Shown here piece after piece: positions 25,772-60,659 of a DNA stretch of 64,000 nucleotides. The stretch comes from an uncultured Thermoleophilia bacterium. Its GTDB lineage: Bacteria > Actinomycetota > Thermoleophilia > UBA2241. The notes below the pieces were generated by a model, which was not told where the DNA came from, did not search any database, and worked only from the letters and a program-made list of their open reading frames with translations. Numbering within the stretch: position 1 is the stretch's first letter; each line of letters starts with the position of its first letter. The position numbers and the translations under genes are program-made. The stretch is taken from contig CAWCSR010000003.1 in assembly GCA_963798285.1 (NCBI GenBank), forward strand, positions 400,905 to 464,904, read 5' to 3'.

Positions 25772-27132
25772 GCTCGGTGCTGCTCGTCTACCCGTTCTTC
25801 CGCCGCTCGCTCGACCGCTCCCGCTTCCGCTTCCCGCCGCTCGGACCCGCCTACGTGGCTGCGAGCGTCCGCGCCGCCGGCCACGACGTGCGCCTGCTCG
25901 ACTGCACGTTCCTGAGCCGCCGGCGGGCGCGCACGCTCGCGCTCGCCGCCCGTGCGGACGTGGTCGGCATCTACTGCATGGCGACCATGCGCGACGACGC
26001 CGAGTGGCTCGCGCGACAGTTGCGCGGCCGCTGCGAGCTGCTGGTCGCCGGCGGGCCGCTGCCCACCTGCGAGCCGGAGTCGTTCCTCGCCGCGTTCGAC
26101 GCGGTGGTGCGCGGCGAGGGCGAAGAGACCATGGTCGAGCTCCTCGCCGCACACGCGGCCGGCGACGACCTCGGCGCCGTGCCGGGAGTGGTCGTGGCCG
26201 GCGGCGCGGCCGCCGAGGCCGGCGCGGCCGCCGCAGGCCCGCCGCGCGCCTTCGCCGCCGATCTCGACGCCCTCCCCTTCCCCGCCCGCGACCTGCTGCC
26301 CAACGCCGCCTACATCAGCCACGGACGGCGGCGCTACGGCTACGCCGTGACCACGGTGATGAGCAGCCGCGGCTGCCCCTTCGCCTGCGAGTTCTGCAGC
26401 AACGTGGTCTTCGGCTCCTCGTACCGCGAGCGCTCGCCGCGCAGCGTCATCGACGAGGTCGAGGAGGCGCTCGCGCTGGGCTACGACCGCATCTCCTTCT
26501 CCGACGACGTCTTCACCATGCGGCCCCGGCGGGTGCTCGCCGTCTGTGACGAGATCGAGCGGCGCGGCCTGCGGTTCGACTGGGAGTGCCTCGCGCGCGT
26601 GGACGGCATCGACCGCGAGACCGCGGCGGCCATGCGCCGCGCCGGCTGCCGGACGGTCTTCTTCGGCATCGAATCAGGCAACGACGACGTCCTGCGAGTG
26701 ATGCGCAAGGGGATCACGACGGCCCAGGCCCGCGCGGCCGTCTGGGCCGCCCACGACGCCGGCCTCGAGGCCGGCGCGTTCTTCATCCTCTGCTACCCCG
26801 GAGACACGGACGAGACGGTGCTCGAGACGCTGCGCTTCGCCGGCTCGCTGCCGCTCGACTACCTCGGCCTCTCGATGCCGTATCCGCTGCCGGGGACGCC
26901 CCTCGGCGAGCGCATGGCGGGCCGCGTCACGGGCGAGTCGCGGCCCGACGGCAGCCTCCTCATGAACCAGCAGCTGACCTACGAGAGCGACTTCTCGGCC
27001 GCCAAGATGCGCTTCGCGATCCTCGCCGGCAGAGGGCAGTTCGTGCTGCGGCGGCGGCTCGGGCGCTTCGGCCCCGCCGCCGCCCGGCTCACGAGGGCGC
27101 CGGCGGAAGCCCTCTTCCGGCGCCTCCGCTGA
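25768..27132 (+). CDS. B12-binding-domain (class B) radical SAM enzyme, paralog 2
   Basis: VLLVYPFF…PPLGPAYVAASVRAAGHDVRLLD…VVGIYCM B12-like domain. SRGCPFACEFCSN cluster motif. GIESGNDDVL. Confidence 0.85.
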   Translation: MSSVLLVYPFFRRSLDRSRFRFPPLGPAYVAASVRAAGHDVRLLDCTFLSRRRARTLALAARADVVGIYCMATMRDDAEWLARQLRGRCELLVAGGPLPTCEPESFLAAFDAVVRGEGEETMVELLAAHAAGDDLGAVPGVVVAGGAAAEAGAAAAGPPRAFAADLDALPFPARDLLPNAAYISHGRRRYGYAVTTVMSSRGCPFACEFCSNVVFGSSYRERSPRSVIDEVEEALALGYDRISFSDDVFTMRPRRVLAVCDEIERRGLRFDWECLARVDGIDRETAAAMRRAGCRTVFFGIESGNDDVLRVMRKGITTAQARAAVWAAHDAGLEAGAFFILCYPGDTDETVLETLRFAGSLPLDYLGLSMPYPLPGTPLGERMAGRVTGESRPDGSLLMNQQLTYESDFSAAKMRFAILAGRGQFVLRRRLGRFGPAAARLTRAPAEALFRRLR

Positions 27133-27229: not shown

Positions 27230-28558
27230 TCAAGCCACGACCGGCTGCTTCGCCGCGAACGCCGTCATCGTCTCCTCGATGCGCCGCCGCAGCCAGATCT
27301 CGTCGATCTCGGAGCTGAAGACGAACGTGACCTCGTTCTCGTGCGTCCAGTCGCGGCCGGTGACGCTGCCGCCCAGCCGCTCCCACAGCCTCGAGCCCGG
27401 CAGCGGCATCGGCACGTTGAACGAGATCTCCGCCAGCGGCAGCTCGAGGGCGAACGCGAAGGTGTCCTCGATGTCGGCCGCGCTCTCACCCGGATAGCCG
27501 ACGATGAAAAAAGCCGCGACCTCGATACCCGCATCGCTGTACACGTTCACCGCGCGCACGCTCTGCTCGACCGTCATCTGCTTCTGCATGAGGTCGAGGG
27601 TCGCCTGGCTGCCGGATTCCAGGCCGAGGTAGACGCGCCGGCAGCCGGACGCCCGCATCACGGCGGCGGTGACGGGGTCGATCCCGTTGGCGCGCGAGAG
27701 GCAGCTCCACGTGAGCCCGAGCGGCGTCACGCGCCGGCAGAACTCCTCGAGGTAGTCACGGTGGAGCGTGAAGGTGTCGTCGGCGATCCACAGGCCGTCG
27801 TACCCGAGCCGGACGATGTCGTCGATCTCGGCCATGACCGCGTCGAGCGGCCGGCGCCGAACTGCGTTGCCGAAGACCGGCTTGGAGCAGAACTCGCAGT
27901 CATAGGGACAGCCCAGGGTCGCGAGTAGCGTCGTGGGCCGGTAGCCGCCGGGCGCCCACTCGCGCTGGTAGGCGCGGTGGTCGAAGTCGCCGCGGTCGGG
28001 CAGCGGGTAGGCGGCGATCTCCGCCTGGGACTGGTGCACCGGTGGGCTGGCCACCAGCACGCCGTCGACGTGAGCTACGAGGCCGGCGTATCCGGCGAGC
28101 GGCAGGTCGCCGAGCGTCGCCGGCGTGACGCGCCGCTCCAGATAGTCGCGGCAGAACGCGGGGAAGCTCGTGTCGGCCTCCCCGCGGAACACGACGTCGG
28201 CGTGCGGCAGAAAGCGGTCCGGGAACACGGTCGGCAGCGGACCGCCGGCCACCAGCAGCGCGCCGGGCAGCCGTTCGCGGACCACCGCCGCGATGTCCAG
28301 GGCATTGCCGGTGAGGCTGACCATGACGGAGATGCCGACGATCGCCGGCCGCCAGGCCACGAGGTCGTCGATCAGCTCGTCGAACGAGCTGAAGGTGCCG
28401 TCGAACACGCGCGCGCCCACACCCGCCCTCTTGAGGTGGGCGCTCAGCAGTGCGGGACCGAGAGGCGGGAACAGGACCTCGGTCCTCGCCCTGGTGCGAA
28501 AGTACGGGAACACCAGGGCCACACCTCGTTGCCTCCTCAGCCACGGTGTCTCGACCAT
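27230..28558 (-). CDS. B12-binding-domain (class B) radical SAM enzyme, paralog 3 (closest to paralog 2)
   Basis: ALVFPYF…FPPLGPALLSAHLKRAGVGARVFD…IVGISVM. TLGCPYDCEFCSK. GLESGSQATL. The start is taken at ATG 28558; TTG 28564 is also possible. Confidence 0.85.
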   Translation of the reverse strand: MVETPWLRRQRGVALVFPYFRTRARTEVLFPPLGPALLSAHLKRAGVGARVFDGTFSSFDELIDDLVAWRPAIVGISVMVSLTGNALDIAAVVRERLPGALLVAGGPLPTVFPDRFLPHADVVFRGEADTSFPAFCRDYLERRVTPATLGDLPLAGYAGLVAHVDGVLVASPPVHQSQAEIAAYPLPDRGDFDHRAYQREWAPGGYRPTTLLATLGCPYDCEFCSKPVFGNAVRRRPLDAVMAEIDDIVRLGYDGLWIADDTFTLHRDYLEEFCRRVTPLGLTWSCLSRANGIDPVTAAVMRASGCRRVYLGLESGSQATLDLMQKQMTVEQSVRAVNVYSDAGIEVAAFFIVGYPGESAADIEDTFAFALELPLAEISFNVPMPLPGSRLWERLGGSVTGRDWTHENEVTFVFSSEIDEIWLRRRIEETMTAFAAKQPVVA

Positions 28559-28662
28559 GAGCAATGCTTGCCCGCCGAGCCCGGGGCGTCAACGTTGACT
28601 GCTTCTTCGGCGACGCGACCGCAGGCTGCAGACGAGGCGCGAGGTGTGACAGTATCGCCACG

Positions 28663-29514
28663 ATGGACGCCCGCCAGCTCATCGACAGGCGATACTCCTG
28701 CCGCACCTGTCTCGAGCGGCCGATCTCGGACGCGGACGCGAAGTCGCTCGGCGACTTCATGGCCGCCCGGACGACCGGACCGCTCGGCTCGGCCGTGCGT
28801 TTCGGCCTCGTCGCCGCCTCCCCCGACGACGAGGGCGCGCTCAAGCGCCTCGGCACCTACGGGTTCATCAAGGGCGCCAGGGCCTTCATCGTGGGCGCCG
28901 TGCGCAAGGGCCCCGGCGACCTCGAGGACTTCGGCTACCTCCTCGAGGAGGTGGTCCTGCACGCCACCGGCCTGGGGCTCGGCACCTGCTGGCTCGGCGG
29001 CACGTTCACGCGCAGCACCTTCACGGCCCGCTTCGGCGGTGTGGCGAAGGACGAGACCATCCCGGCGGTGGTCTCCGCCGGCTATCCGGGCGACGACGGC
29101 ACGGAGCGCATCCGCGAGCGGGAGGAAGGCACGCGGCGCTTCCCGCCGGACGAGCTCTTCTTCTCCGATGAGTGGGCCGTGCCGCTCGGCCTCGAGCGCG
29201 GGCACGGCTACGCCGCCGCGCTCGAGGCCGTCCGCATGGCTCCGTCGGCGACCAACAAGCAGCCCTGGCGCATCGTGCGCCGCGGCGGCGACTGGCACTT
29301 CTACCTGGCGCGCTCCAAGGGCTACGGCAAGGGCAGTCCGTGGTTCAAGCTGCTGCGCATCGCCGACCTGCAGCGCGTGGACCTCGGCATCGCCATGTGC
29401 CACTTCGCGCTCGTGGCGCGCGAGTGCGGCCTCGGCGGGCGCTGGATCGTGGACGACCCGGGGCTGGCGACGCCGGCCCCGGGCATCGAGTACACGGCCA
29501 CCTGGCGCGCGTAG
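28663..29514 (+). CDS. Nitroreductase-superfamily flavoprotein (TM1586-like)
   Basis: RRYSCRTCLERPIS…GLGTCWLGGTF…APSATNKQPWRIV. Transcribed divergently from radical SAM paralog 3. Confidence 0.65.
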   Translation: MDARQLIDRRYSCRTCLERPISDADAKSLGDFMAARTTGPLGSAVRFGLVAASPDDEGALKRLGTYGFIKGARAFIVGAVRKGPGDLEDFGYLLEEVVLHATGLGLGTCWLGGTFTRSTFTARFGGVAKDETIPAVVSAGYPGDDGTERIREREEGTRRFPPDELFFSDEWAVPLGLERGHGYAAALEAVRMAPSATNKQPWRIVRRGGDWHFYLARSKGYGKGSPWFKLLRIADLQRVDLGIAMCHFALVARECGLGGRWIVDDPGLATPAPGIEYTATWRA

Positions 29515-38020: not shown

Positions 38021-39400
38021 TCAGGCCCGCGCCAGCTCGTCGGCGACGGCCAGGACGCCGTCCAGCAACTCCAGACCCTCCTGCACCTCGTCGCGCCCGA
38101 TGATCAGCGGCGGCGCGACGATCAGCAGGTTCCCGTGCGGGTAGAGATGGAGGCCGCGGTCCATAGCGGCCCTCCTGAGGGCCGCCATCGGCTGCGCGGC
38201 CTCCCCCGTCGCCGCGTAGGGCACCAGCGGTTCCCGCGTTTCGCGGTCGCGCACGAGCTCGAGACCCCACAGCAGGCCGAGGCCGCGGGCCTCACCGACG
38301 GAGGGATGGTCGTCGGCAAGCTCTCTCAGGCCGACACCAAGCACTTCGCCCATCGCCGCCGCGTTCTCCACCAGCCGCTCGTCGCGTATCGCCTCGATGG
38401 TCGCGACGCCGGCCGCGCACGCGAGCGGGTGGCCGCACGCGGTGAGCCCGCTCGCGAACTCGTGCTCGTCCAGCCAGGTGCGCAGTTTCTCGCTCACGAC
38501 CATGGCGCCGAGGGGCACGGCGCCGCCGCTGATGCCCTTGGCCAGCGTCATGATGTCCGGGGTGACGCCCCAGTGCTCGCAGGCAAACCAGCGGCCGGTG
38601 CGGCCGAACCCGGTCATCACCTCGTCCAGGATGAGCAGGATGCCGTGACGGTCGCAGACCTCGCGGATGGTAGTGAGGTAGCCGGGCGGCGGGACCAGCA
38701 CGCCGTTGGCGCCGGTGACCGTCTCCAGGATCACGGCGGCGACCGACCCGGGGTCCTCGTACCGCAGGATCTCCTCGAGATGCGGGCCGCCGGCGGCGAT
38801 GGAACAGTCGTCGGCATGGCCCCCGGCGTGGTCGAACGCGTGGGCGCTGAACGCGTCGTAGGCGTGCCCCGCGGGACACCGGTACGGGTACGGATCGAGC
38901 ATGTGCACGACGCCGGGCACGGCCGGCTCGGCGGGCCAGCGCCGCCGATCGCCGGTGAGCGCCGCGGCGCCCGCGGTCGCGCCGTGGTAGCTGCGGTAGC
39001 GGGCGATGACCTTCTGGCGCCCGGTGACCCAGCGCGCCAGCTTGACGGCGTTCTCGTTGGCGTCGGCGCCGCCGGTCGTGAACAGGGTCAGGCCGAGGTC
39101 GCCCGGCGTGACCTCGGCCAGCAGCCGGGCCAGCTCGGTCCGCGGCTCGCTGGCGAAGGAGGGCGCCAGGCCGTACAGCGTCTCCGCCTGGCGCCGCACC
39201 GCCTCGACCAGCCGCGGGTGCCCGTGCCCGAGATTCAGGTTGACCACCTGCGAGGCGAAGTCCAGATACTGCCGGCCCTCGGCGTCGCGGAAGCGGCAGC
39301 CTTCGCCGCCCACGATGCGCAGCGGCTCCACCGCGCCCTGCGCGCTCCATGAGTAGATGACGTGCTCGTGCTCCACGCCGTCGACTTTATCCCGTCGCAC
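38021..39400 (-). CDS. Class III (omega) PLP-dependent aminotransferase
   Basis: …LNLGHGHPRLVEAV…FTTGGADANENAVKLAR…YHGAT…LILDEVMTGFGRTGRWFACEHWGVTPDIMTLAKGISGG…. Only the C-terminal 459 codons of the 779-aa ORF are credible. The start is uncertain (GTG 39400 or a GTG 24 nt downstream). Confidence 0.85.
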   Translation of the reverse strand: MRRDKVDGVEHEHVIYSWSAQGAVEPLRIVGGEGCRFRDAEGRQYLDFASQVVNLNLGHGHPRLVEAVRRQAETLYGLAPSFASEPRTELARLLAEVTPGDLGLTLFTTGGADANENAVKLARWVTGRQKVIARYRSYHGATAGAAALTGDRRRWPAEPAVPGVVHMLDPYPYRCPAGHAYDAFSAHAFDHAGGHADDCSIAAGGPHLEEILRYEDPGSVAAVILETVTGANGVLVPPPGYLTTIREVCDRHGILLILDEVMTGFGRTGRWFACEHWGVTPDIMTLAKGISGGAVPLGAMVVSEKLRTWLDEHEFASGLTACGHPLACAAGVATIEAIRDERLVENAAAMGEVLGVGLRELADDHPSVGEARGLGLLWGLELVRDRETREPLVPYAATGEAAQPMAALRRAAMDRGLHLYPHGNLLIVAPPLIIGRDEVQEGLELLDGVLAVADELARA

Positions 39401-39535
39401 TGCCGGCTGCACGGCGCACGGACGAAAACGGCACGCTCGCGTGGAGCCGCCCGACCAGGAGGCCCGGGACTCGCCGTGCTCGTTTCGGCCCCAGCGGGTA
39501 CAGTTGGCGTCGACCCACAGTTCGGAGGAGACCGC

Positions 39536-40591
39536 GTGCCCGACCCCACCCAGACGAGCGCCCCCGCCGAGCAGGAGGACGCCGAGCTCGCCGGATTCAT
39601 CCGCCGCCTGCCCAAGGCGGAGCTCCACCTGCACATCGAGGGCACTCTCGAGCCCGAACTGCTGCTCGAACTCGGCCGCCGCAACGGCGTGGATCTGCCG
39701 TGCTCTTCGGCGGAAGAGTGTCGCGCGCAGTATCGCTTCAGCGACCTGCAGGCGTTTCTCGACACCTACTACGAGGGCGTCACTGTCCTCGTCAGAGAGC
39801 GGGACTTCTACGACCTGACCGCCGCCTACGTGCGCCGCGTGGCGGCGGACGGCGCCCGGCACGTGGAGGTGTTCTTCGACCCGCAGAGCCACGTATCCAG
39901 GGGAGTTCCTTTCGCAGATGCAGCAGGCGGCATCACGCGGGCGCTTCGCGACGGCGAGACGAAGCTCGGCGTGAGCTGGAGGCTCATCATGTGCTTCCTG
40001 CGCGACAGGCCGGCCGCCGAGGCGATGGACATGCTGGAGCTCGCGATGTCCCACCGCGACGAGATCGTCGGGGTGGGGATCGACTCGGCCGAGATCGGGC
40101 ACCCGCCGGCCGAGTTCGCCGGGGTGTACGAACGAGCGCGTGCGGCGGGCTTCATCCCCGTCGCGCACGCCGGCGAGGAGGGCCCGCCCCAGAACATCAG
40201 CGACGCGCTGGATCTGCTCAAGGTGCGGCGCATCGACCACGGGGTCGCCGCGATCCGCGATCCGGCACTGCAGCGGCGCCTCGCCGAGGAGCAGGTGCCG
40301 CTCACGATGTGCCCGCTCAGCAACCTCGAGCTGAAGGTGACGCCCGACCTCGCCCAGCACCCTCTCAAGAAGCTCCTCGACGCGGGTCTGCTGGTGACGG
40401 TGAACTCCGACGACCCGGCCTACTTCGGCGGCTACCTGCTCGCCAACTACCTCGCGGTGCAGAAGGCGCTGGGCCTGAGCCGTGCCGACCTGGCCCAGCT
40501 GGCGCGGAACTCGATCACCGCGTCCTTGCTGCCCGCCGCCCGCAAGGCCGAGCTCATCACCGAGATCGACCAGGTGGCGGCCGGAAGCTGA
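39536..40591 (+). CDS. Adenosine/adenine deaminase-family metallo-hydrolase
   Basis: GTG after GGAGGAG. LPKAELHLHIEGTLEPELLLEL, HAGEEGPP, RIDHGV and TVNSDDPAYFGG motifs. Confidence 0.85.
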   Translation: MPDPTQTSAPAEQEDAELAGFIRRLPKAELHLHIEGTLEPELLLELGRRNGVDLPCSSAEECRAQYRFSDLQAFLDTYYEGVTVLVRERDFYDLTAAYVRRVAADGARHVEVFFDPQSHVSRGVPFADAAGGITRALRDGETKLGVSWRLIMCFLRDRPAAEAMDMLELAMSHRDEIVGVGIDSAEIGHPPAEFAGVYERARAAGFIPVAHAGEEGPPQNISDALDLLKVRRIDHGVAAIRDPALQRRLAEEQVPLTMCPLSNLELKVTPDLAQHPLKKLLDAGLLVTVNSDDPAYFGGYLLANYLAVQKALGLSRADLAQLARNSITASLLPAARKAELITEIDQVAAGS

Positions 40592-40600
40592 GGGCGGCTC

Positions 40601-48394: not shown

Positions 48395-49063
48395 TCAGGA
48401 GACCCAGGTCGCCAGCTCGTCGAGAGGGGCGCGCGAGCGCTCGAAGGTGTTGGCGGGAGCGTCGAGTTCCGGGTGGCCGAGGGTGACGGCGACGACCATG
48501 CGCTGCTCCTCGGAGCCGGGCAGCAACTGCCGCAGCAGGCCCGGGTAGCGGACCAGCGTGGTGGATTGGCAGGTGCCCAGGCCCTTGTCGTAGGCGGCGA
48601 GGCACACGTTCTGCACGAGCGACGCCGTGTCGTAGCTCGCGTACGCGGGGGCGAGGCAGTCCTCGAACCCGAACACGAGCAGGACGGGGGCGCCGAAGCA
48701 GTCGGCCGTGCGCGCCAGGGAGGCGGCCGGGCCGGAGGCTTCGCCGGCCGCTTCCATCGTCTCCGCGCGCGTCTTCATCAGCGCGACCGCGCGCGCCGAG
48801 CACGCCTGCGGCCAGTCACCGGTCTGGGTGCCCGACAGGTCGGAGGCGTCGTCCTCCTCGCGGGCGAGCGCGGCCTTGAACGCGGCCTTGAAGCGCTCCA
48901 GCGCCTCCCCGGTGACCACCCAGACACTCCAGGCCTGCGTGTTGCGCGACGAGGGCGCCCACCGCGCCTCATCGAGGATCTCGCGCACCAATTCCTGAGG
49001 GACCGGCTCCGTCGTATAGGCGCGGATACTCCGCCGCCCGCGAATGACGCTTTCCAATTCCAT
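48395..49063 (-). CDS. Nitroreductase-family FMN oxidoreductase
   Basis: IRGRRSIRAYTTEPVPQELVREILDEARWAPSSRNTQAWSVWVV. ATG after AAGGAGAG. Confidence 0.85.
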   Translation of the reverse strand: MELESVIRGRRSIRAYTTEPVPQELVREILDEARWAPSSRNTQAWSVWVVTGEALERFKAAFKAALAREEDDASDLSGTQTGDWPQACSARAVALMKTRAETMEAAGEASGPAASLARTADCFGAPVLLVFGFEDCLAPAYASYDTASLVQNVCLAAYDKGLGTCQSTTLVRYPGLLRQLLPGSEEQRMVVAVTLGHPELDAPANTFERSRAPLDELATWVS

Positions 49064-49143: not shown

Positions 49144-49788
49144 TCAGCGTAGCAGTGCTCGCACGACAGACAGGCCGCGCGAGGCGTCGTCACACCAGGC
49201 GTCCGCGCCGACCTGCTCGCTCGCCGTCTGGTCCACGGGAGCGCCGCCGATGACGATCGGCAGGCGTCGCTCCCAAGTCGACGTGCGCTCGCGCACGAGG
49301 GCGATGGTCTGCTTCATGCTGTCGTAGCCGGTGGTGAGCAGGGAGGACAGCCCCAGCACATCTGGGCGCTCACGTTCGACGACGTCGGCGATGTGCTCGG
49401 GGGTCACGTTCACTCCGAGGTCGACCATGTCGTAGCCCTCGGCGTCGAAGAGTGTGATGACGATGTTCTTGCCGATGTCGTGGATATCGCCTCGCACCGT
49501 GGCGATGACCATGCTGCGCTCCCGGGCAGCGTGTGCGGAAATCTCCCCGCGCGGCACGAGGATCTCGGCGGCCTCCCGGAAGATCTCGCCGGCCATGATG
49601 AGGGCGGAGATGAAGTACGTGCCCTTCTCATAGAGTTTGCCGACGCGCTCCATGCCCAAACGGCACTCAGCGAGGAGGGTCGCAGGATCCTCGTCCGCAT
49701 CGAGGCGGCGGCGGATGGCGGCGATCGCGCCGCGCTCGTCCATCCGCACGATGAGTTCGTCGAGAGCGTTCTCGGGTTTGGCCGTCAC
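49144..49788 (-). CDS. Corrinoid (B12-binding) protein, class B, co-transcribed with a GntR regulator
   Basis: GTG at 49788 lies 4 nt after the GntR stop, with AGGAG inside the GntR 3' end. Cap helix bundle (YFISALIMAGEIFREA). DxHxxG motif RGDIHDIGKN. …GLSSLLTT…IVIGGAP. Confidence 0.8.
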   Translation of the reverse strand: MTAKPENALDELIVRMDERGAIAAIRRRLDADEDPATLLAECRLGMERVGKLYEKGTYFISALIMAGEIFREAAEILVPRGEISAHAARERSMVIATVRGDIHDIGKNIVITLFDAEGYDMVDLGVNVTPEHIADVVERERPDVLGLSSLLTTGYDSMKQTIALVRERTSTWERRLPIVIGGAPVDQTASEQVGADAWCDDASRGLSVVRALLR

Positions 49789-49792
49789 CGGG

Positions 49793-50561
49793 TCAACTCC
49801 TCTTCTCCCCGGAACCGACGAGGCCGACGGTGGTCGACAATCTCAGGCGATCGGCGCGACCGACGAAGCGGCCCCAGCTCTCCGGGCGCTCCTCGAAATC
49901 GTAGAAGAGGTGCTCGAGGACCCACGCCGCGATGCCCGGCTGCTCGTTCAGATACGCGGCCTCTGCCTCCGTGAAGGCGGACGCATGCAGGGTCAGACGA
50001 CCGTACTTGATGTCCGAGCCCCATCGCTCCGGAGAAGAGATCCTGCAGCGCAGTGACGCCGAGCTCGGCCTCGACGAGGGGCCGAGCGGGATCGAAGACC
50101 AGGTACTCGCTGTGGTAGAAGAGCGGCTCATCCCCGCGCCTGAGCAGCCGCTTGATGGAGATGACGCGGTCGTCCTCCCCGACCTCGAGCTTCTCGCGTA
50201 CCCGGACAGACGGCGAGACGATGCGCGCCTCGATGATGTGCGCCTCGATGTCCGGGTCGGCCAGATACTCCTGCAATTCGCTGAGGTCGAAGAGCGCGGT
50301 GCTGAGCTGCGGCACTTTGACGAACGTCCCGCGACCGTGTTCCGTGACGGCGACGTCCTCACGCACGAGCTCGGCGATCGCCCGCCTCACGGTCATCGGG
50401 CTGACGCCATAGGCGGCGCAGAGTTCGGCCTCGGACGGCAAGCGGTCGCCCGGCCGATACTCCCCGCGGGCGATGCTCTCGCGGATGCTCCGCGCGAGCT
50501 GGGCATAAGGCGGCTCGAACGATTCCCTGTCGATAGCAGCGGTCTGTTTCACGCCGCCCAT
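49793..50561 (-). pseudogene. GntR/HutC-family regulator (wHTH + UTRA), one frameshift near 50035-50045
   Basis: PYAQLARSIRESIARGEYRPGDRLPSEAELCAAYGVSPMTVRRAIAELV. After …GVTALQDLFSG a second frame continues ERWGSDIKYGRLTLHASAFTEAEAAYLNEQPGIAAWVLEHLFYDF…. This aligns with the intact paralog at 56896. Confidence 0.8.
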
Positions 50562-50582
50562 TCTAGCACTTCCCTACTTCCC

Positions 50583-50611
50583 TAGACCAGTGGGGAACTT
50601 GGCGTTATACT
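50583..50611 (+). promoter_or_regulatory. Sigma-70-like promoter candidate TAGACC-17-TATACT for the corrinoid/URO-D operon
   Basis: -35 at 50583-50588, 17-nt spacer, -10 at 50606-50611, about 85 nt upstream of the ATG at 50696. It overlaps an ACTTCCCT x2 direct repeat (50568-50583) and a CTAGACCAGT half-palindrome. Confidence 0.4.
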
Positions 50612-50695: not shown

Positions 50696-51333
50696 ATGTC
50701 ACAGGAGTTGACCGACGCCATCGTCGGCATGCGCGAGGAGGAGGCCCTCGGCCTCGTCCAGAGCATGCTCGAGGCCGGCATAGATCCGAAGACCGTGCTC
50801 GACCAAGCCAAGGACGCGATGACCGAGCTCGGGCGCCGCTTCGAGTGCGAAGAGGCGTTCATCCCCGAGCTCATCATGGGCGGCGAGATCATGAAGAACA
50901 TCGCCGAAGAGCTGAAGCCGCACCTCAAGGGCGAGGCCGAGGAGGCCAAGCGCGGCACCATCGTCATCGGCACCGTGCAGGGCGACATCCACGACATCGG
51001 CAAGGACATCGTCGTGATGATGCTCGGCATCAACGGCTACGAGGTGCACGATCTCGGGCGTCGACGTGCCCGCGGACAAGTTCATCAGCGAGATCCGAGA
51101 GAGCGGCGCGCAGGTCGTCGGCCTGAGCGGCCTGCTCACCCTGGCCTTCGACTCGATGAAGGCCACCGTCGATGCCATCGCCGCCGCCGGCCTGCGCGAC
51201 CAGGTCAAGATCATGGTCGGCGGGGCGCCGGCGGACGAGCAGGTCGCAGGGCTACACCGGCGCCGACGGCTGGGGCAACGACGTGTCGGTGGCCCTCAAG
51301 CTGGCGGCCGAGTGGACGGGAGGTGCGTCATGA
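50696..51333 (+). pseudogene. Corrinoid (B12-binding) protein, class A, with two +1 frameshifts (GGG at 51056-51058 and 51249-51251)
   Basis: AFIPELIMGGEIM. GDIHDIGKD. After …YEVHDLG the next frame gives VDVPADKFISEI…GLSGLLT…IMVGGAPADEQVAG. A third frame gives YTGADGWGNDVSVALKLAAEWTGGAS*. This is colinear with the intact paralog at 56087-56719. Confidence 0.8.
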
Positions 51334-52586
51334 CGCCGACCGGCGAGGAGCTCTACGCGCAGCGCGAAGGGCGGTTCAACGACATCGTCGCGCTCAGGAA
51401 GCCCGACCACATCCCGGTCATCGGGCACACGATCCACTACTTCGCCGACCTCTGGAAGGGTCACTCCCAGAAGGAGGCGGGCTACAACCACCCGCAGCAC
51501 TATGAGGCCATCAGGGCCGCCACCGTCGAGTTCGGGTGGGAGTTCGAGCCCACCAACGCGCTGTTCGCCGCCGACGGCTATGAGGCGCTCGGCATCAAGC
51601 AGTTGCGCTGGCCCGGCGGCGACTTGCCCGACGACGTCGGCTTCCAGTTCGTCGAGGGCGAGTACATGAAGGCCGACGAGTACGAAGAGTTCCTGGCCGA
51701 CCCCAACGGCTTCACGCTCCGCAAGATCTTCCCGCGCATCGCCGACAATCTTGCGGGGTTCGAGCAGGTGCCGATCCCGCCCCTCTATTTCATGGCAAAC
51801 ACCTACTACCTGCTCAACGTCGGCGGCCCACTGCTGGGCGCGCCGCCGTTGCGCAAGGCCATGGAGAGCCTGCTGGCGATGTCCGACGCCGTAGGGGCGT
51901 ATTTTGCGGCGGATGCGGCCAGCGCACAGGAGATGGCCGCGCTCGGCTACCCGCGCACGTGGGGAGCGCCTATCGTCCCGGCGTTCGATGTGGTCTCAGA
52001 CATGCTCCGCTCGCTGCGCGGAAGCACGCTGGACATGTACCGCCATCCTGATCAACTGCTCGCCACCATCGATCGCATTCAAGAGGCTCAGATCGGCCTG
52101 GCGATGATGGTCATGAAGGTCACCGGCAATCCGCGCGTCTTCATCCCCATGCATCGCGGGGCCGGCGGCTTCATGAGCGACGAGCAGTTCGAGAAGTTCT
52201 ACTGGCCCACGTTCAAGGCTCTCGTGATGGCCATCATCGACGCCGGCGGCGTGCCGTGTCCTCTCTTCGAGGGTGACTACACGCCGCGTCTCAAGTACCT
52301 CGCCGAGTTCCCGCCCGGCACGATCGCCGGCCACTTCGACAAGATCGACCGAAAGAAATTCAAGGAGATCCTCGGCGACAAGATGTGCTTCTGGGGCAAC
52401 GTGCCGGTCTCGCTCCTGTGCACCGGCACGCCGCGGCAGGTGAAAGACGACGTCAGGGAGCTCATCGAACTGTTCGGCGACACCGGCGCGCTGATCCTCG
52501 ACTCTGGCCTGGGCGTCCCAGACGAGGCGAAGCCGGAGAACCTGCATGCGATGCGCGAGGCAGCGGACGAGTACGGGGTCTTCTGA
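51330..52586 (+). CDS. URO-D/MtaA-family methyltransferase-like protein (418 aa)
   Basis: ATGA overlap with the corrinoid A stop. C-terminal block FWGNVPVSLLCTGTPRQVKDDVRELIELFGDTGALILDSGLGVPDEAKPENLHAMREAADEYG is typical of the uroporphyrinogen-decarboxylase/MtaA fold. Confidence 0.7.
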   Translation: MTPTGEELYAQREGRFNDIVALRKPDHIPVIGHTIHYFADLWKGHSQKEAGYNHPQHYEAIRAATVEFGWEFEPTNALFAADGYEALGIKQLRWPGGDLPDDVGFQFVEGEYMKADEYEEFLADPNGFTLRKIFPRIADNLAGFEQVPIPPLYFMANTYYLLNVGGPLLGAPPLRKAMESLLAMSDAVGAYFAADAASAQEMAALGYPRTWGAPIVPAFDVVSDMLRSLRGSTLDMYRHPDQLLATIDRIQEAQIGLAMMVMKVTGNPRVFIPMHRGAGGFMSDEQFEKFYWPTFKALVMAIIDAGGVPCPLFEGDYTPRLKYLAEFPPGTIAGHFDKIDRKKFKEILGDKMCFWGNVPVSLLCTGTPRQVKDDVRELIELFGDTGALILDSGLGVPDEAKPENLHAMREAADEYGVF

Positions 52587-52710: not shown

Positions 52711-53469
52711 ATGACAATGGACGACCAGCCCAAGGCACCCAGGCCCGGCCTTGGCGGGCTCAAGCTCATCGCCTGCCCGGCCGTCATCGGCGAACTCGCC
52801 GACGGCGCCACTCAGGGCGTCGACTGCCACGAGCTCGAGGCACAACTGCACGTGAGCCCGGAGCGGCTCAAGGAGGCGCTCCGGGTCGCCGTCGCCGAGG
52901 CCGACGCACCCGGCGCGACGATCGTGCTCGGCTACGGCCTCTGCTCCAATTCCGTCCTCGGCCTCAAGACCGAGCGAGCGACCCTCGTCGTCCCCAGGGT
53001 GGATGACTGCATCGCGATGATGCTTGGGTCGAACGAGGCGTTCTCCGCTGAGTCCGAGAAGGCGCGCGGCAGCTACTACGTCGCCAAGGCGTATCTGGAA
53101 GAATGCGACACGATCATGAGTGAGCACGACAAGCTGGTGGAGAAGCGCGGCCGCGAGCGCGCCGAGCAGATGATGCGCCTGCTGCTCAAGCACTACACAC
53201 GCATCGTGCTCATCGACACCGGCCGCTACGACATGGAGCCGCACCGGGCACGGGTCGCCGGCTTCGCCGAGACCTTCGACCTGGCGGTCGAGGAGATCCC
53301 GGGAACGACGCGGATCCTCGATGCGCTCGTGGCGGAGGAGTGGGGTGACGACTTCGTCGTCGCCCCGCCGGGCCACGAGCTCACGCTCCGGGACTTCCGC
53401 CCCGAGCTCTTCTCGGGCGAGGCCTCCGCCCCGCCGGCCGCCGCGTCGCCGAGCGACGGGCCGGCGTGA
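52711..53469 (+). CDS. DUF1638-like protein
   Basis: LKLIACPAVIGEL…IVLGYGLCSNSVLGL…LVVPRVDDCIAMMLGS…GSYYVAKAY…. This layout is what I recall for DUF1638, a family found beside corrinoid methyltransferase genes. Confidence 0.55.
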   Translation: MTMDDQPKAPRPGLGGLKLIACPAVIGELADGATQGVDCHELEAQLHVSPERLKEALRVAVAEADAPGATIVLGYGLCSNSVLGLKTERATLVVPRVDDCIAMMLGSNEAFSAESEKARGSYYVAKAYLEECDTIMSEHDKLVEKRGRERAEQMMRLLLKHYTRIVLIDTGRYDMEPHRARVAGFAETFDLAVEEIPGTTRILDALVAEEWGDDFVVAPPGHELTLRDFRPELFSGEASAPPAAASPSDGPA

Positions 53470-54053
53470 ACATCCTCTGCATCGCCGGCTTTCTCGGATC
53501 CGGCAAGACCACCGTGTTGCTCGAGGTCGCGCGCGCGATGACCGAAGCGGGCTGGCGGCTCGCCGTCATCGAGAACGAGATCGGCGAGATCGGAGTGGAC
53601 GGCGGCTACGTGCGCGAGCAGGGCCTGCCGGTGCAGGAGCTCTTCGGCGGCTGCATCTGCTGCACCCTGCAATCCGGGCTGGTGGAGACCCTGCGGACCG
53701 TCGAGAGCCGCTACAGCCCGGACTGGGTGCTGATCGAACCCACGGGGCTGGCCGCCCCGGCCGACCTGCTGGGCGTCGTCGTCGACAATTGCCCCGACAT
53801 CGACATGATCCGGGTACTCACACTCGTCGACGCCGCTCGCTGGCCGATGCTCCTGGAGGTCGTCGAGCCACTCGTCACGGCCCAGCTCGAAGCCGCCGAC
53901 ATCGTCGCCGTCAACAAGGTCGACGAGGTCGACGACGAGGCACTGGCGGCCGTCATGAAGAGCGTTCGCGCGCTCGCCGGCAAGGCGACGGTGCTGCGGG
54001 CCTCCGCCGCCACGGGCGCCGGCATGAAGCGCCTCCTCGGAGCCTTCGTCTGA
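53466..54053 (+). CDS. CobW/HypB/UreG-type (G3E family) P-loop GTPase, short form
   Basis: GTGA overlap with the upstream gene. GFLGSGKTT P-loop. GCICCT metal-binding-type motif. LIEPTGLA. VNKVD (NKxD). Confidence 0.8.
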   Translation: MNILCIAGFLGSGKTTVLLEVARAMTEAGWRLAVIENEIGEIGVDGGYVREQGLPVQELFGGCICCTLQSGLVETLRTVESRYSPDWVLIEPTGLAAPADLLGVVVDNCPDIDMIRVLTLVDAARWPMLLEVVEPLVTAQLEAADIVAVNKVDEVDDEALAAVMKSVRALAGKATVLRASAATGAGMKRLLGAFV

Positions 54054-54472
54054 TGAGCACGCACGAGGCCGGCGGTCACGACCACCTCCGGCTCCTCGGC
54101 GACAACGCCCAGCCGGCCGTGTTCGCGGCCCGGGCCGACGTCGTGTTCTCGCCGCCGGCGCGAGCCGACCAGGTCGAGGTGGCCGTCACGCGCTTCTTCA
54201 CCGCCCTCTCCGGCGGCCTGGCCGACGCCGGCTGCACGCTGGTCGGCCACGTCAAGGGAACGCTTGCGGCTCACGGCTACGGAGACCTCGGGTTCCACGC
54301 CACCGCGCTCGCGGTGCCCCCCCTTCTGACGGGCGGCATCGCCGGCGACGCCCGGGAGGCCGTGCTCACCGTGAACGTCATCGTCTTCGGCGTGCCGGAC
54401 GGAGACCTGCCCGCCATCGTCACCGAAGCCTGGTCCCGAGCCACCGGCACGCAGGCGGTCTGGCGTCGCTGA
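54053..54472 (+). CDS. Hypothetical 139-aa protein translationally coupled to the CobW-like GTPase
   Basis: ATG overlaps the TGA of the upstream gene (TGATG). No recognisable motif. N-terminus is His-rich (MSTHEAGGHDH). Confidence 0.45.
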   Translation: MSTHEAGGHDHLRLLGDNAQPAVFAARADVVFSPPARADQVEVAVTRFFTALSGGLADAGCTLVGHVKGTLAAHGYGDLGFHATALAVPPLLTGGIAGDAREAVLTVNVIVFGVPDGDLPAIVTEAWSRATGTQAVWRR

Positions 54473-54741: not shown

Positions 54742-56094
54742 TCAGATCTGCGCCCCGTACTTCTTGCCGGCGTCGATCATCGCCTTCATGCAGTCGGCCT
54801 TGGCTTGGTCGATCACGATGCCCGAGCCGAGGATGAAGCCGCCGGGACCGGCGACGTCCTCGATGAGCTGGCGCACGTAGTCGTCCATTTCCTGCGGCGT
54901 GCCGGTCGTGATGAGCGCGCCGGGCACGTTGCCGCCGAAGCACTGGTAGCCGCCGAGATGCTTGCGCGCCTCACTCATGTCCGTGGCGTCGAACATCCAG
55001 ATCATCTTGCCCGCCGGGATCTCGAGATCATGGATGGCCTCGAGACGCTCGTTGTACCCTCCCTCGGCGAAGATGAGCGGCACGATGCCCTCCTCGATGA
55101 GTCCGAGGAGGACCTTCTTGAACGTCGGCCAGTAGAAGGTGCGGAAATCCTCGTCCGAGAGGAACCCGTCAGCGCCCTTGTGCAGCGGGATGAACACCAT
55201 CGGATGCTTGTTGACATCGCAGGCGCGTACCCCCCAGTCAATCGCCAACGGCACCAGCCGCTCGCAGGCCTCGAGGACCTTCTCGGGACGACGGAACTTG
55301 TCGAGCATGAGCCCACGAGTGCCGCGGAGGGTGTCGCCGAGGATGTCATACGGCGCCTTGGTAGCGCCGCCGGCGAAGCCCGGCATGCCGTAGGTGGCGA
55401 GCGCCTTGCCGTCCATCGCACCGGCGGCCTGGATCCACTCGAGCGCCAACCTGCCCGCCTCGAGGAGCTTCTTGAACATCTCCTGCACTGGGGGCGTGCC
55501 GAACGGAATGAAGAACGGGCCCGTCAGGGGAGCTTCCACGAGGTCGGTGAACGGCGAGAGCATCGTCCACGGTTCCATGGCTCCGAAGATCCGCGGGAGG
55601 TAGAAGCGCTGCCAGAAGTTGGAGGGGTCGGCGATGAGGAGGTCGTACTCATCGGCGTGCATCCACTCCTTCTCAACGTACTGGTAGCCGGCGGTATCCG
55701 GTACCCCGTGGCCGGGCCAGTCGTAGAGTTTGTAGTCGAGAACGTCGAAGATCTCGCAGGGAGCGATGTTGATGGAGAAGGCGAGTACATCCTGCTTGAA
55801 CTCGGCGTGCCACTTCTGCCAGGCGACGTCGAGGCGCGCGAAGTCGTAGTAGGCCTCGCGCGCTGTCATGCCGTCCCACAGCGCCGGGAACAGCCCGATC
55901 CAGGGCGCGATCGGCACCCGCTGGGGCTTCTTGAGCTGGACCGCGTCACGGAACAGCTGCACACGATCCTGGTACTGCTTCTTGACGTCTGCGGACGCGA
56001 ACTCGACGTCGGGGTTCTGCCACACGTCCATGCGGACCTTGAAGCGTTCGTCAGGCGTCAGATCGTTCCAGTTGTCGGCGAACACGTCATTCAC
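54742..56094 (-). CDS. URO-D/MtaA-family methyltransferase-like protein, paralog 2 (450 aa)
   Basis: GTG at 56094 overlaps the corrinoid A' stop by 8 nt. FIPLHKGADGFLSDEDFRTFYWPTFKKVL… and CFGGNVPGALITTGTPQEMDDYVRQLIEDVAGPGGFILGSGIV… are colinear with the gene at 51330. Confidence 0.7.
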   Translation of the reverse strand: MNDVFADNWNDLTPDERFKVRMDVWQNPDVEFASADVKKQYQDRVQLFRDAVQLKKPQRVPIAPWIGLFPALWDGMTAREAYYDFARLDVAWQKWHAEFKQDVLAFSINIAPCEIFDVLDYKLYDWPGHGVPDTAGYQYVEKEWMHADEYDLLIADPSNFWQRFYLPRIFGAMEPWTMLSPFTDLVEAPLTGPFFIPFGTPPVQEMFKKLLEAGRLALEWIQAAGAMDGKALATYGMPGFAGGATKAPYDILGDTLRGTRGLMLDKFRRPEKVLEACERLVPLAIDWGVRACDVNKHPMVFIPLHKGADGFLSDEDFRTFYWPTFKKVLLGLIEEGIVPLIFAEGGYNERLEAIHDLEIPAGKMIWMFDATDMSEARKHLGGYQCFGGNVPGALITTGTPQEMDDYVRQLIEDVAGPGGFILGSGIVIDQAKADCMKAMIDAGKKYGAQI

Positions 56095-56719
56095 CCCCCG
56101 TCCACTGCCTGGCGAGATCGACGGCCGCCACGGCATCTTTGCCAAAGCCGTCCGCGCCGGTGTACGCAACGATCTGCTCGGTGATCGGCGCACCGCCGAT
56201 CATCAGCTTCACGTCGCCACGCATGCCGGCGGCGCCGGCCTCAGTGACCAGGCGTTTCATCGCCTCGATCGCGCTCGTGAGCAGGCAGCTCATGGCGATG
56301 ATCTGCGCCTTCTTCTCGCGCGCTGTCTCGAGGAACGCAGCCACCTTGACGTCGACGCCCAGATTGACGACGTCGAACCCGGCGAGGTCGAGCATCGTCG
56401 CGACGATGTCCTTGCCGATGTCGTGAATGTCACCCTCGATGGTGCCGATGACCACGACGCCGAGCTTCTCCTCGGCCGGCACGCTCGCAAGGTGCGGCTT
56501 GAGCTTGGCGGAAATGCCGGTCATGATCTCGCCGGCCATGATCAGTTCGGGAATGAAGGCCTCGCCGCAGGCGAAGCGCTCCCCGATCGTATCCATCGCG
56601 CGCTTGCAGTCGCTGAGGATGCCGACCGGATCGGCCCCCTCCCCCAGCAGGCGATCGACGATGGCCAGAGCGTCGTCTTCCCGAAGGTCGACCACCGCCT
56701 GGATCAGCTCTTCTGCCAC
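56087..56719 (-). CDS. Corrinoid (B12-binding) protein, class A (intact copy)
   Basis: AFIPELIMAGEIM cap. GDIHDIGKD (DxHxxG). MSCLLTS. LMIGGAP. Ends YTGADGFGKDAVAAVDLARQWTGGE. SD AAAGGAGGAAA. Confidence 0.85.
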   Translation of the reverse strand: MAEELIQAVVDLREDDALAIVDRLLGEGADPVGILSDCKRAMDTIGERFACGEAFIPELIMAGEIMTGISAKLKPHLASVPAEEKLGVVVIGTIEGDIHDIGKDIVATMLDLAGFDVVNLGVDVKVAAFLETAREKKAQIIAMSCLLTSAIEAMKRLVTEAGAAGMRGDVKLMIGGAPITEQIVAYTGADGFGKDAVAAVDLARQWTGGE

Positions 56720-56787: not shown

Positions 56788-56816
56788 TTGCCAGCGCCTA
56801 GGACATAATGTATAGG
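56788..56816 (+). promoter_or_regulatory. Sigma-70-like promoter candidate TTGCCA-17-TATAGG in an unusually AT-rich patch
   Basis: -35 at 56788-56793, -10 at 56811-16. The spacer carries the palindrome ACAT-A-ATGT. GTGCAC hexamers flank it at about 56735 and about 56835. Confidence 0.4.
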
Positions 56817-56895
56817 TATTTCCTCGGGAGGCAAGTGCACGCATGGCTGCTGCTAGCATCCGGCCGTGAGGGACACGACGGAAGGCGCCCGGCAA

Positions 56896-57678
56896 ATGGC
56901 GACTATCCCCGCGGGTCGGGGCATCGACAGAGCGTCCTACGAGCCTGCTTACATCCAGCTCGTCAACATCCTGCGGGGCGCCATCGCCAGCGGTCAGTAC
57001 CAGGCCGGCGACCAGCTCCCCACGGAGTCGGAGCTCTGTTCCGCCTACGACGTGAGCCCGATGACGGTGCGCCGCGCCATCGGCATGCTGCTCGATCAGG
57101 GTGCGGTCACCACCACGAGAGGGCGCGGCACGTTCGTGCAGCCGCTGCGCCTCGCCACGGCCACGTTCGACCTCAGCGAGTTCCACGACATCCTGGCCGA
57201 GCCCGGCGTGACCGCCAAGGTAGTCGAGGCGCGCGTGCTGCCCGCCGGTCCGCGCGCCGCCGCCAACCTCGGCGTCCCGGACGGCACCCACGTGGTCTCC
57301 ATCCGCCGCATCCTGCAGCGCGGCGACGAGCCGCTGATCTACCATCGCGAGTCGCTCATCTACGACCCCACGCGCCCGACCATCGAGTCCGAGCTCGACG
57401 TCACCGCCCTGCGCGACATGTTCGAGGGCGGCGTCGGTTCGGGCCCCAAGCGCGGCGAGCTCATCCTCCACGCCTCCGTCCTCACCGAGGAGGAGGCCGG
57501 CCGCCTCACGCTGCCGGCAGGCGGCGCCGCCTGGGTGCTCGAGCACATCTTCTACGGCTACGACGAGCGACCGATCAGCTGGGGCTGCTTCATCTGCCGC
57601 GGCGAGCTGTTCTCGTTCCGCGCCAGTGTGGGCGCCTCGGCGCCCGAGGGCGACAGCGCGAGGAGGAACCGCACATGA
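56896..57678 (+). CDS. GntR/HutC-family regulator (wHTH + UTRA), intact copy
   Basis: MATIPAGRGIDRASYEPAYIQLVNILRGAIASGQYQAGDQLPTESELCSAYDVSPMTVRRAIGMLL. The start is chosen by alignment with the paralog; GTG 56866 is also open. Confidence 0.85.
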   Translation: MATIPAGRGIDRASYEPAYIQLVNILRGAIASGQYQAGDQLPTESELCSAYDVSPMTVRRAIGMLLDQGAVTTTRGRGTFVQPLRLATATFDLSEFHDILAEPGVTAKVVEARVLPAGPRAAANLGVPDGTHVVSIRRILQRGDEPLIYHRESLIYDPTRPTIESELDVTALRDMFEGGVGSGPKRGELILHASVLTEEEAGRLTLPAGGAAWVLEHIFYGYDERPISWGCFICRGELFSFRASVGASAPEGDSARRNRT

Positions 57679-58340
57679 CCGAGTTCGAGGGGCTCGACCC
57701 CGCATCGCTCGCCGCACGCATCGCCGCCCTGGACGAGCAGGGCGCGCTCGACGCGGTCGGCGCACGCATCGCCGCCGGAGACGACCCACTGGTGATCATC
57801 GAGGAGTGCCAGCTCGGCATGCGCTGGGTCGGGGAGCACTATCAGACGGGCAAGTACTTCATCTCCGGCCTCATCATGGCCGGCGAGATCTTCCGCGAGG
57901 CCATGGTCGACCTCGGGCCGCTGCTTCCCGAGGAGACCCCCGAGGCCGGACAGGGCACGGTGCTGCTCTGCACCGTCCGCGGCGACATCCACGACCTGGG
58001 CAAGAACATCGTCACCATGATGCTGCGCTCCTACGGGATCATCGTGCACGACCTGGGAGTGGACGTCTCGCCCGACGAGGTCGTGCGCAAGGCCGTGGAG
58101 CTCAAGCCGGACATCGTCGGCCTCTCCGGCCTCCTGACCGTCGCCACCGACGGCATGAAGGCGACGGTCCAGGCGGTGCGCGACGGAGAGAAGCAGATCG
58201 GCCGCCGCCTGCCGGTCATCATCGGCGGCGGCATCGTCGACGAGCAGACCCGCACCTGGACGGGCGCCGACCTCTGGGCCAACGACGCTTCGCGCGGCGT
58301 GAAGCTCATCCGCGAGCAGATCGCGGCGGCCCGCTTCTGA
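57675..58340 (+). CDS. Corrinoid (B12-binding) protein, class B (intact copy), translationally coupled to GntR
   Basis: ATGA overlap with the GntR stop. AGGAGGAA lies 6 nt upstream. YFISGLIMAGEIFREA. RGDIHDLGKN. GLSGLLTV. VIIGGG. Confidence 0.85.
   Translation: MTEFEGLDPASLAARIAALDEQGALDAVGARIAAGDDPLVIIEECQLGMRWVGEHYQTGKYFISGLIMAGEIFREAMVDLGPLLPEETPEAGQGTVLLCTVRGDIHDLGKNIVTMMLRSYGIIVHDLGVDVSPDEVVRKAVELKPDIVGLSGLLTVATDGMKATVQAVRDGEKQIGRRLPVIIGGGIVDEQTRTWTGADLWANDASRGVKLIREQIAAARF

Positions 58341-58472: not shown

Positions 58473-60659
<2,187 letters not shown>

Follow-up and report, generated by a model that had tools for sequence, protein, structure and literature searches.

Why should a transcriptional regulator be encoded together with a cobalamin-binding protein, next to an operon that already supplies a corrinoid carrier of its own? 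The question is raised by a 64,000-nucleotide stretch of DNA (hereafter the window) from an uncultured Thermoleophilia bacterium (contig CAWCSR010000003.1, positions 400,905 to 464,904), in which the gene for a GntR/HutC regulator, GntR1, overlaps that for a stand-alone B12-binding protein, B12B1. A paralogous pair, GntR2 and B12B2, is found in the same window, and each pair faces a divergent catalytic operon in which the gene for a corrinoid carrier (class A) is followed by that for a UroD-type methyltransferase I (MT I). We refer to the B12 proteins encoded with the regulators as class B. The G+C content of the window is 71%, and close homologues of the encoded proteins bear the names of Thermoleophilia or Actinomycetota metagenome-assembled genomes.

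Corrinoid methyltransferase systems, which include O-demethylases as well as haloalkane and quaternary-amine demethylases, bear on lignin-derived aromatics, chloromethane, and gut trimethylamine precursors. According to a 2026 paper, the regulation of such systems in bacteria is largely unexplored (PMC13222342).

The pair analyzed here suggests a B12-protein-dependent gene switch that has not been described before. From sequence comparison we favor, with a probability of roughly 55%, the reading that class B acts as a cobalamin-bearing co-sensor of the GntR repressor, because the two genes are adjacent with near invariance in at least four phyla, because there is one class B protein per GntR, and because the pair is independent of the methyltransferase cassette beside it. 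When a gene pair is conserved between distant phyla, its two products often interact.

Two coupled gene pairs

GntR1 (56896–57678, + strand) encodes a regulator of 260 residues with a winged helix-turn-helix (wHTH) and a UTRA domain; its start is likely the ATG at 56896, with a GTG at 56866 as the alternative. B12B1 (57675–58340, + strand) encodes a stand-alone corrinoid-type protein of 221 residues, in which Pfam recognizes the B12-binding_2 and B12-binding domains. The ATG start of B12B1 (57675–57677) and the TGA stop of GntR1 (57676–57678) form the ATGA overlap (57675–57678) pointed out in a preliminary description of this DNA, and both this overlap and the Shine-Dalgarno-like sequence reported inside the 3′ end of GntR1 (GAGGAGGAA, 57660–57668, + strand) can be read in the sequence. 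The same 4-nt overlap recurs in other loci (L001, L003, L004, L005, L008, L009). In the second copy, GntR2 (49793–50561, − strand) ends with a TGA at 49795–49793 and B12B2 (49144–49788, − strand, 214 residues) starts with a GTG at 49788; the 4-nt gap (cccg) and the embedded AGGAG described earlier are both there, the latter as AGAGGAG immediately upstream of the GTG. Both copies are modules of four genes and old paralogues of each other, with identities of 50% for GntR, 44% for class B, 48% for class A, and 35% for the methyltransferase.

The second copy had been described as non-intact, a view that the sequence of a near-identical contig speaks against. This contig (L168) comes from another sample, encodes an identical B12B1 protein, and is 99.89% identical to the window over 16.3 kb. 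The two differ by exactly four indels, each of them a single-base insertion in the window (50018, 51059, 51246, and 60768), of which the first shifts the frame of GntR2, the second and third shift that of B12A2, the class A gene of module 2, and the last breaks trpD. All genes are intact in L168, where GntR2 has 255 residues, and in a more distant relative (L005), B12A2 having 211 residues in both. Pseudogenization of the second copy was rejected, since L168, at 99.89% identity, lacks the indels and since trpD, too, is broken by one of them. Most likely the four insertions are consensus errors, with the look of long-read assembly; since this is probable and the genes are intact in L168 and L005, we take both modules to be functional.

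Conservation of the pair

Homologues were collected from both sides of the pair. On the B12 side, an alignment of class B proteins was run against one genome per GTDB species, yielding 80 loci that were then searched by tblastn with the window proteins, and a neighbor-joining tree was built from 108 carrier proteins. Class B forms a clade of its own in this tree, which holds both B12B1 and B12B2 and extends over Thermoleophilia, Chloroflexota, Bacillota, and Desulfobacterota, that is, at least four phyla; among its members are proteins from Thermoleophilia, Anaerolineae/Chloroflexia, Syntrophomonadaceae, a Clostridia metagenome-assembled genome, and Deltaproteobacteria, including Desulfosarcina variabilis. 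For every member whose contig shows that side, a GntR gene lies directly upstream on the same strand, at a distance of −13 to about +58 nt. Carriers with a UroD-type enzyme downstream fall in other clades.

On the GntR side, a regulator alignment was run against metagenomes and gave 80 loci with 44–97% identity, 73 of which had enough downstream sequence to be informative. Class B is encoded directly downstream of the GntR homologue in 71 of these 73, and the remaining two have a truncated remnant next to a major facilitator superfamily (MFS) gene. The adjacency of GntR and class B is far above chance and, as the idea of a dedicated pair supposed, it is conserved outside this genome. The distinction between the carrier classes also holds in sequence: for 90 of 94 carriers of other lineages, hidden Markov models trained solely on Actinomycetota-type proteins gave the class expected from the genomic context, and three of the four misassignments are GntR-adjacent carriers of other clades (L019, L027, L040).

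These three loci are themselves pairs of a HutC regulator and a B12 protein, and in further loci (L045, L046, L078; Peptococcaceae, Thermincola, Roseburia) the order is reversed, with the B12 protein gene first and a regulator gene of the GntR + UTRA type second. Since pairs occur in other carrier clades and in reverse order, the association of a HutC regulator with a stand-alone B12 protein appears to have arisen, or to have been kept, more than once. Among the sequenced isolates that carry the pair are Desulfosarcina variabilis and Desulfosporosinus sp. HMP52.

In Thermoleophilia (L001, L005, L009, L168), GntR1–B12B1 lies immediately upstream of the trp operon, with the start of trpE at 58473 in the window. 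Other genes follow the pair in other lineages, for example, amt/P-II in L002 and a glycosyltransferase gene in L012, so that the linkage to trp seems to be a matter of synteny within one lineage.

Class B and the catalytic operon

The preliminary description had stated that the neighboring operon encodes its own carrier, and Pfam and sequence comparison bear this out for both modules. In module 1, the divergent operon opens with B12A1 (56087–56719, − strand), which falls in the class A clade and is followed by UROD1 (54742–56094, − strand, 450 residues; Pfam URO-D 2.1e-14), an MT I of the UroD superfamily resembling O-demethylases and CdmB. In module 2, B12A2 (50696–51333, + strand) precedes a second such enzyme, UROD2 (51330–52586, + strand, 418 residues; Pfam URO-D), which shares the 35% identity with UROD1 given above. 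The coordinates of UROD1 and UROD2 and the start of GntR1 are those called in L168. The sole PDB sequence match of UROD1 is CdmB (9rui, E 3.5e-31), the chloromethane MT I of Acetobacterium, whose group also includes MtvB, OdmB, and VdmB, which are O-demethylases of aromatic compounds (PMC13222342). Because the UroD-like proteins are related to CdmB, we conclude that the neighboring operons encode corrinoid-dependent MT I systems; both enzymes have the PF01208 domain, homology to CdmB, and a class A gene directly upstream, as corrinoid MT I enzymes of this superfamily do.

The chief alternative to a sensing role is that class B is a second working methyl carrier, which would serve another MT I, a methyltransferase II (MT II) elsewhere, or a split methionine synthase, and would merely be co-transcribed with an autoregulated repressor. 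Pathways can share carriers (PMC12478193), and operons with several carriers exist, for example, in L106 and L113. Moreover, no MT II gene was found near the Thermoleophilia modules, the window included, and in L009 an MT I gene adjoins the pair with no class A gene beside it. The composition of complete operons argues against such a role: the Chloroflexota-type divergent operon consists of MT I, class A, an MT II with a Pterin_bind domain, and DUF1638, a full system with one carrier and without class B (L102). Conversely, 12 loci with class A and MT I and at least 3 kb of sequence on each side have neither GntR nor class B, and loci with two cassettes of MT I and class A (L153, L113, L106) have a single GntR gene and a single class B gene all the same. 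The Pterin_bind gene lies between class A and DUF1638 at 2330–3151 of L102, the one gene at this position to which Pfam was applied, and an equivalent gap of ~0.9 kb is seen in L095, L098, L106, L116, L135, and L158.

Class B also stays joined to GntR when its surroundings change. Orthologues of GntR1 and B12B1 (94–97% and 81–96% identical, respectively) adjoin a methyltransferase of a different type in L008 and L088, and pairs of the B12B2 type adjoin UROD1-like enzymes in L093 and L096. The same picture emerges from co-diversification, analyzed through pairwise-distance matrices over 27 complete modules. The distances of GntR and class B are correlated (r 0.87, partial r 0.81), as are those of class A and MT I (r 0.74, partial r 0.69), whereas class B correlates less with class A (r 0.55) and MT I (r 0.34), with partial coefficients of −0.07 and 0.05, respectively; the bootstrap intervals of the correlation differences exclude zero for these modules. 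A carrier that is encoded and evolves with its methyltransferase would be expected to behave otherwise, and the earlier claim that class B is dedicated to the regulator agrees with these numbers, class B tracking GntR and not the enzyme.

The class B protein

The protein itself, in contrast, speaks for the second-carrier alternative. Class B combines a four-helix cap with a Rossmann B12 domain carrying the DxHxxG, SxL, and GG motifs, and residues D104, H106, G109, S151, and G184–G185 are each present in at least 99% of class B sequences; the cofactor motifs are thus all intact, and by its domains class B belongs to the corrinoid proteins. The best PDB sequence match of B12B1 is the carrier of an O-demethylase from D. 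hafniense (4jgi, 1.3e-36), followed by 1y80, MetH Cob domains, and MttC. Much weaker matches were obtained to AerR (7te2, phmmer E 1.1e-4) and to the NCBIfam model of CarH (E 3e-4, 20.3 bits against a cut-off of 400). The AlphaFold2 model of B12B1, with a predicted local distance difference test score (pLDDT) of 91, is a canonical cap + Rossmann module, for which Foldseek returned the MetH Cob domain, 4jgi, MttC, and MtmC, then photocobilin and MerR-B12 domains, and finally AerR (3.6e-9) and CarH (about 1e-8).

As judged from sequence and predicted fold, class B is a cobalamin binder of the His-on methyl-carrier type and not CarH- or AerR-like. It is set somewhat apart from the classical carriers by its scores against TIGR02370, at 120.5 bits for B12B1 and 131 for B12B2, far under the cut-off of 215.3, which class A (159.7) does not reach either. 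No difference between class A and class B was found in isoelectric point (pI) or charge. Class-specific residues were considered as a clue to function, and two positions alone emerged, class A having F in place of Y56 and K in place of P180, from which we draw no functional conclusion. On sequence grounds, a regulatory role of class B is neither proven nor excluded. Weighing its close kinship to catalytic carriers, above all to the MetH Cob domain, against its absence from methyltransferase loci that lack GntR and its evolution apart from MT I and class A, we hold a second working carrier to be possible but rather unlikely, and continue with class B as a co-sensor.

The regulator and its candidate operators

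Both regulators have the winged-helix domain of the GntR family (PF00392; 1e-18 for GntR1, 3.3e-23 for GntR2), and the UTRA domain of the HutC subfamily, which has a chorismate-lyase fold, is matched almost end to end in GntR1 (PF07702; 1.6e-16, profile positions 6–140 of 141). The best structural matches of the AlphaFold2 model of GntR1 (pLDDT 83) are YvoA/NagR, YydK, DasR, and PhnF. An insertion in UTRA was considered as a partner-binding site and none was found, the low-pLDDT segment around residues 160–185 aligning with ordinary HutC proteins.

Candidate operators were sought in the regions upstream of 93 GntR genes, with the maximum score in shuffled sequences as the threshold. A common motif with the consensus aTTATAcACTTATATAGGGAAGTTGTCAAg exceeds this maximum in at least 70 of the 93 and is present as a perfect palindrome in L135 (ACTTCCCTAGGGAAGT) and L151 (TACCTGTCTAGACAGGTA). 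It overlaps a TTGACA-17-TATAAT promoter directed at the divergent operon, and in several loci a second copy lies close to the GntR start. In the window, the inverted repeat AAGTTCCCCACTGGTCTAGGGAAGT (50576–50600), a candidate GntR2 operator, scores 33 bits with the family-wide motif ACTTnnnTAGGGAAGT, where shuffled sequences reach 12.7 at most, and overlaps a promoter-like TAGACC-17-TATACT (50583–50611) for the B12A2 operon. The GntR1 orthogroup has a motif variant of its own, CATAATGTATAG(A/G)TATTT, which spans 56804–56822 within the candidate GntR1 operator AGGACATAATGTATAGGTATTTCCT (56800–56824) of the divergent intergenic region. Its core, CATAATGTATAG (56804–56815), is kept in L001, L004, L005, L008, L088, and L089, whichever methyltransferase adjoins, with positions of about −65 to −97 relative to the start of GntR. 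We infer binding at these sites from the motifs, and the candidate operators fit an autoregulated repressor of the catalytic operon. Neither a cobalamin riboswitch nor any other Rfam element was found in the window. The sequence TGGTCTAG in WIN2 resembles the dre half-site.

A proposed role for the pair

In the model that we favor, a GntR dimer would sit on its palindromic operator over the catalytic promoter, and often over its own promoter as well, and so cause repression. Class B would bind cobalamin in the base-off/His-on form, and the state of its cofactor (apo as opposed to holo, or Co(I)/Co(II) as opposed to methyl-Co(III)) would alter its binding to GntR and hence the occupancy of the operator. 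As a result, synthesis of the B12-dependent pathway would be limited to times at which the cell has usable cobalamin or the pathway is in operation. The analysis establishes the domains, the arrangement of the genes, the conservation of the pair, its independence of the catalytic cassette, and the operator motif; the contact between GntR and class B, the direction of its effect (anti-repressor or co-repressor), and the signal sensed are those parts of the model that we infer. The signal is more likely a generic one than one given substrate, because one type of pair serves interchangeable methyltransferases; it could be the supply of cobalamin, or else the redox or methylation status of the cofactor. 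The preliminary description, which had proposed a sensing or anti-repressor role for class B, is partly supported by our analysis.

Several considerations weigh against this model. The link between GntR and class B is made wholly from genomic context; translational coupling by itself is ordinary operon behavior, and a mirror-tree correlation can come from tight linkage without physical contact. Three apparent UTRA-B12 fusions (P0241, P0493, P0494), which might have served as Rosetta-stone evidence, contain out-of-frame stretches, come from error-prone assemblies, and were rejected as frameshift artefacts. On the regulator side, the UTRA domain has no insertion relative to 2ra5 or YydK and resembles an ordinary small-molecule-binding HutC domain, and GntR may, judging from its model, need no protein partner. 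On the class B side, the protein matches working methyl carriers in motifs, fold, pI, and charge, and in L009 it could be the carrier of the adjoining methyltransferase. Finally, the GntR operon of module 2 runs on into genes for a nitroreductase and an MFS transporter, and hence is not purely regulatory.

A variant of the model would couple sensing to the enzyme. Class B would then be a decoy carrier that is methylated by the adjoining MT I when substrate is present, with its methyl state toggling binding to the HutC regulator. The regulator pair would need no substrate specificity of its own and could be reused beside interchangeable cassettes, which fits the observed cassette swapping; we regard this substrate-sensing form as tentative and, on the whole, unlikely.

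If class B is indeed a co-sensor of GntR, the pair would join riboswitches and photoreceptors as a third way of controlling genes through B12, and would bring B12-protein-dependent control of transcription to a family of transcription factors that is not known to use it. Class B would, to our knowledge, be the first protein co-effector of the HutC family. The pair could also provide a portable B12- or methylation-responsive switch. The idea is directly testable, because the pair is widespread and present in sequenced isolates.

Accessory and neighboring genes

Three genes lie between the two convergent catalytic operons: that for a DUF1638 protein (52717–53469, + strand; Pfam 4.9e-40), common to both modules; that for a CobW-like G3E GTPase of 195 residues (53466–54053, + strand); and a small open reading frame of 139 residues (54053–54472, + strand), which overlaps the stop of the GTPase gene (TGATG) and had no Pfam match when 53321–54472 was searched. 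The GTPase matches the NCBIfam model "CobW-related selenoprotein" (2e-33, 115.7 bits, below the cut-off of 180) and CobW (5e-23), and its L168 counterpart matches Pfam cobW; together with the small reading frame it recurs in L007 and L168. Downstream of B12B2 lies a gene for a flavoprotein of the nitroreductase family (48395–49063, − strand; Pfam Nitroreductase 2.8e-29), with a weak match to BluB below the cut-off, which may have a role in cofactor chemistry. In Thermoleophilia, the nitroreductase gene always follows B12B2-type genes (L005, L111, L153, L168), with the MFS transporter gene next. DUF1638 has been reported to take part in corrinoid-dependent methyl transfer, through a genetic link and probably in B12 reactivation (PMC5764234, PMC12478193). 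In a 471-residue metagenome protein (P0324), DUF1638 is naturally fused to an entire corrinoid protein, cap and B12 domain included, which is direct evidence for an action of DUF1638 on or with corrinoid proteins of the methyl-carrier kind. The carrier part of P0324 is class A-like, which rules it out as a link between class B and DUF1638.

This neighborhood lends itself to another explanation, namely that class B is a cobalamin handler, responsible for storage, tailoring, or delivery of the cofactor and for the loading of class A, in concert with the CobW-like protein, DUF1638, and the nitroreductase-fold flavoprotein of module 2. The genes in question do cluster with the modules; in particular, DUF1638, with its tie to B12 reactivation (PMC5764234), divergently adjoins GntR–class B in most Chloroflexota-type loci, and the nitroreductase gene follows B12B2-type genes. 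However, the CobW and nitroreductase genes do not accompany the pair from phylum to phylum, the sole fusion of DUF1638 to a carrier has the wrong class of carrier for this role, and cobalamin handling leaves both the near-invariant adjacency to GntR and the co-diversification with it unexplained. We consider a handler improbable and retain the co-sensor reading.

Elsewhere in the window, three genes for B12-binding radical-SAM proteins and one for a TM1586-type nitroreductase are clustered at 22055–23527 (+), 25621–27132 (+), 27230–28588 (−), and 28561–29514 (+); with this cluster and the four corrinoid proteins, the segment is unusually rich in cobalamin-dependent functions. In related contigs, genes for an ATP-binding cassette (ABC) transporter of the branched-chain-amino-acid type (Peripla_BP_6, BPD_transp_2, ABC_tran) lie beside further UroD/carrier cassettes (L001, 217–5035; L007, 13056–19021), which hints at an imported organic substrate. 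A frame of 859 residues at 38021–40600 (− strand) has an Aminotran_3 domain in its C-terminal half only, and its N-terminal 425 residues, which have no Pfam match, may be high-GC read-through upstream of the true start.

Comparison with known systems

The preliminary description knew of no GntR/UTRA regulator paired with a B12 protein, and we found none in the searched part of the literature on GntR, HutC, or UTRA proteins with corrinoid or B12-binding partners. The closest remark is that mttB genes of Eubacterium are often near genes for B12 proteins, transporters, and GntR proteins. The "mlp" clusters of Kountz and Balskus were considered and set aside, as they belong to a different UroD clade and the paper is silent on GntR, CobW, and DUF1638 (PMC10418091).

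As precedents, CarH/LitR, AerR–CrtJ, and PpaA–PpsR had been put forward, with the proviso that they use other families of transcription factors. The proviso stands, and the precedents themselves fit less well, since class B is far nearer to methyl carriers (1e-36) than to AerR or CarH. AerR–CrtJ and PpaA–PpsR resemble the present pair in that a separate cap + Rossmann B12 protein of ~210–220 residues is encoded beside the repressor that it is proposed to modulate: class B is likewise a stand-alone B12-binding protein whose gene lies next to that of a transcription factor, and AerR (7te2) is among its Foldseek matches. By sequence, however, class B is no member of the AerR/PpaA family, and its partner is a GntR/HutC protein and not CrtJ or PpsR. 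The targets also differ, being here a corrinoid methyltransferase pathway, and the interaction is proposed from the genes alone, with light dependence unlikely. CarH and LitR share the principle, proposed here, that cobalamin on a cap + Rossmann module controls a repressor; in CarH, the module is fused to a MerR domain and photolysis of adenosylcobalamin drives the switch, whereas the present proteins are separate polypeptides without a MerR domain. A W-x2-E-H sequence in B12B1 resembles the CarH motif and serves as a lead only. A CarH/AerR-type light sensor that makes GntR light-responsive is hardly credible in spite of the fold shared with CarH, AerR, and photocobilin B12 domains and the AerR–CrtJ precedent for stand-alone B12 co-regulators (PMC9144470), because the sequence matches to AerR (1e-4) and CarH (3e-4) are so poor beside those to carriers (1e-36), W-x2-E-H is confined to the B12B1 orthogroup and not class B-wide, the regulated genes serve methyl-transfer catabolism and not photoprotection, and strict anaerobes of sediments and digesters are among the hosts. 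Anaerolineae, Syntrophomonadaceae, and Desulfobacterota are represented, which likewise makes the analogy with a light sensor unlikely.

The cognate corrinoid proteins of methyltransferase systems (MtaC, MtbC, MttC, MtgC, 4jgi) are the nearest relatives of class B, with the same domain architecture, motifs, size, and acidic pI, and they provide its best matches in sequence and structure. In contrast to them, class B is encoded with a regulator, forms a clade separate from the carriers that adjoin MT I, and is absent where there is no GntR.

The regulator, for its part, resembles NagR/YvoA, DasR, and PhnF in its wHTH + UTRA fold and in its candidate operator, a palindrome of roughly 16 bp with a TA center that lies over the promoter. 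The known members of the subfamily respond to small phosphorylated sugars or to ligands related to phosphonates, and we know of no repressor of this type with a dedicated protein partner or a pairing with a cobalamin protein. In its logic, the proposed switch comes close to EutR and PocR, through which a B12-dependent catabolic operon is induced only when both the substrate and B12 are present. EutR and PocR belong to the AraC family of activators and are reported to detect cobalamin directly, whereas in the system proposed here this task would fall to a separate corrinoid protein acting for a HutC repressor.

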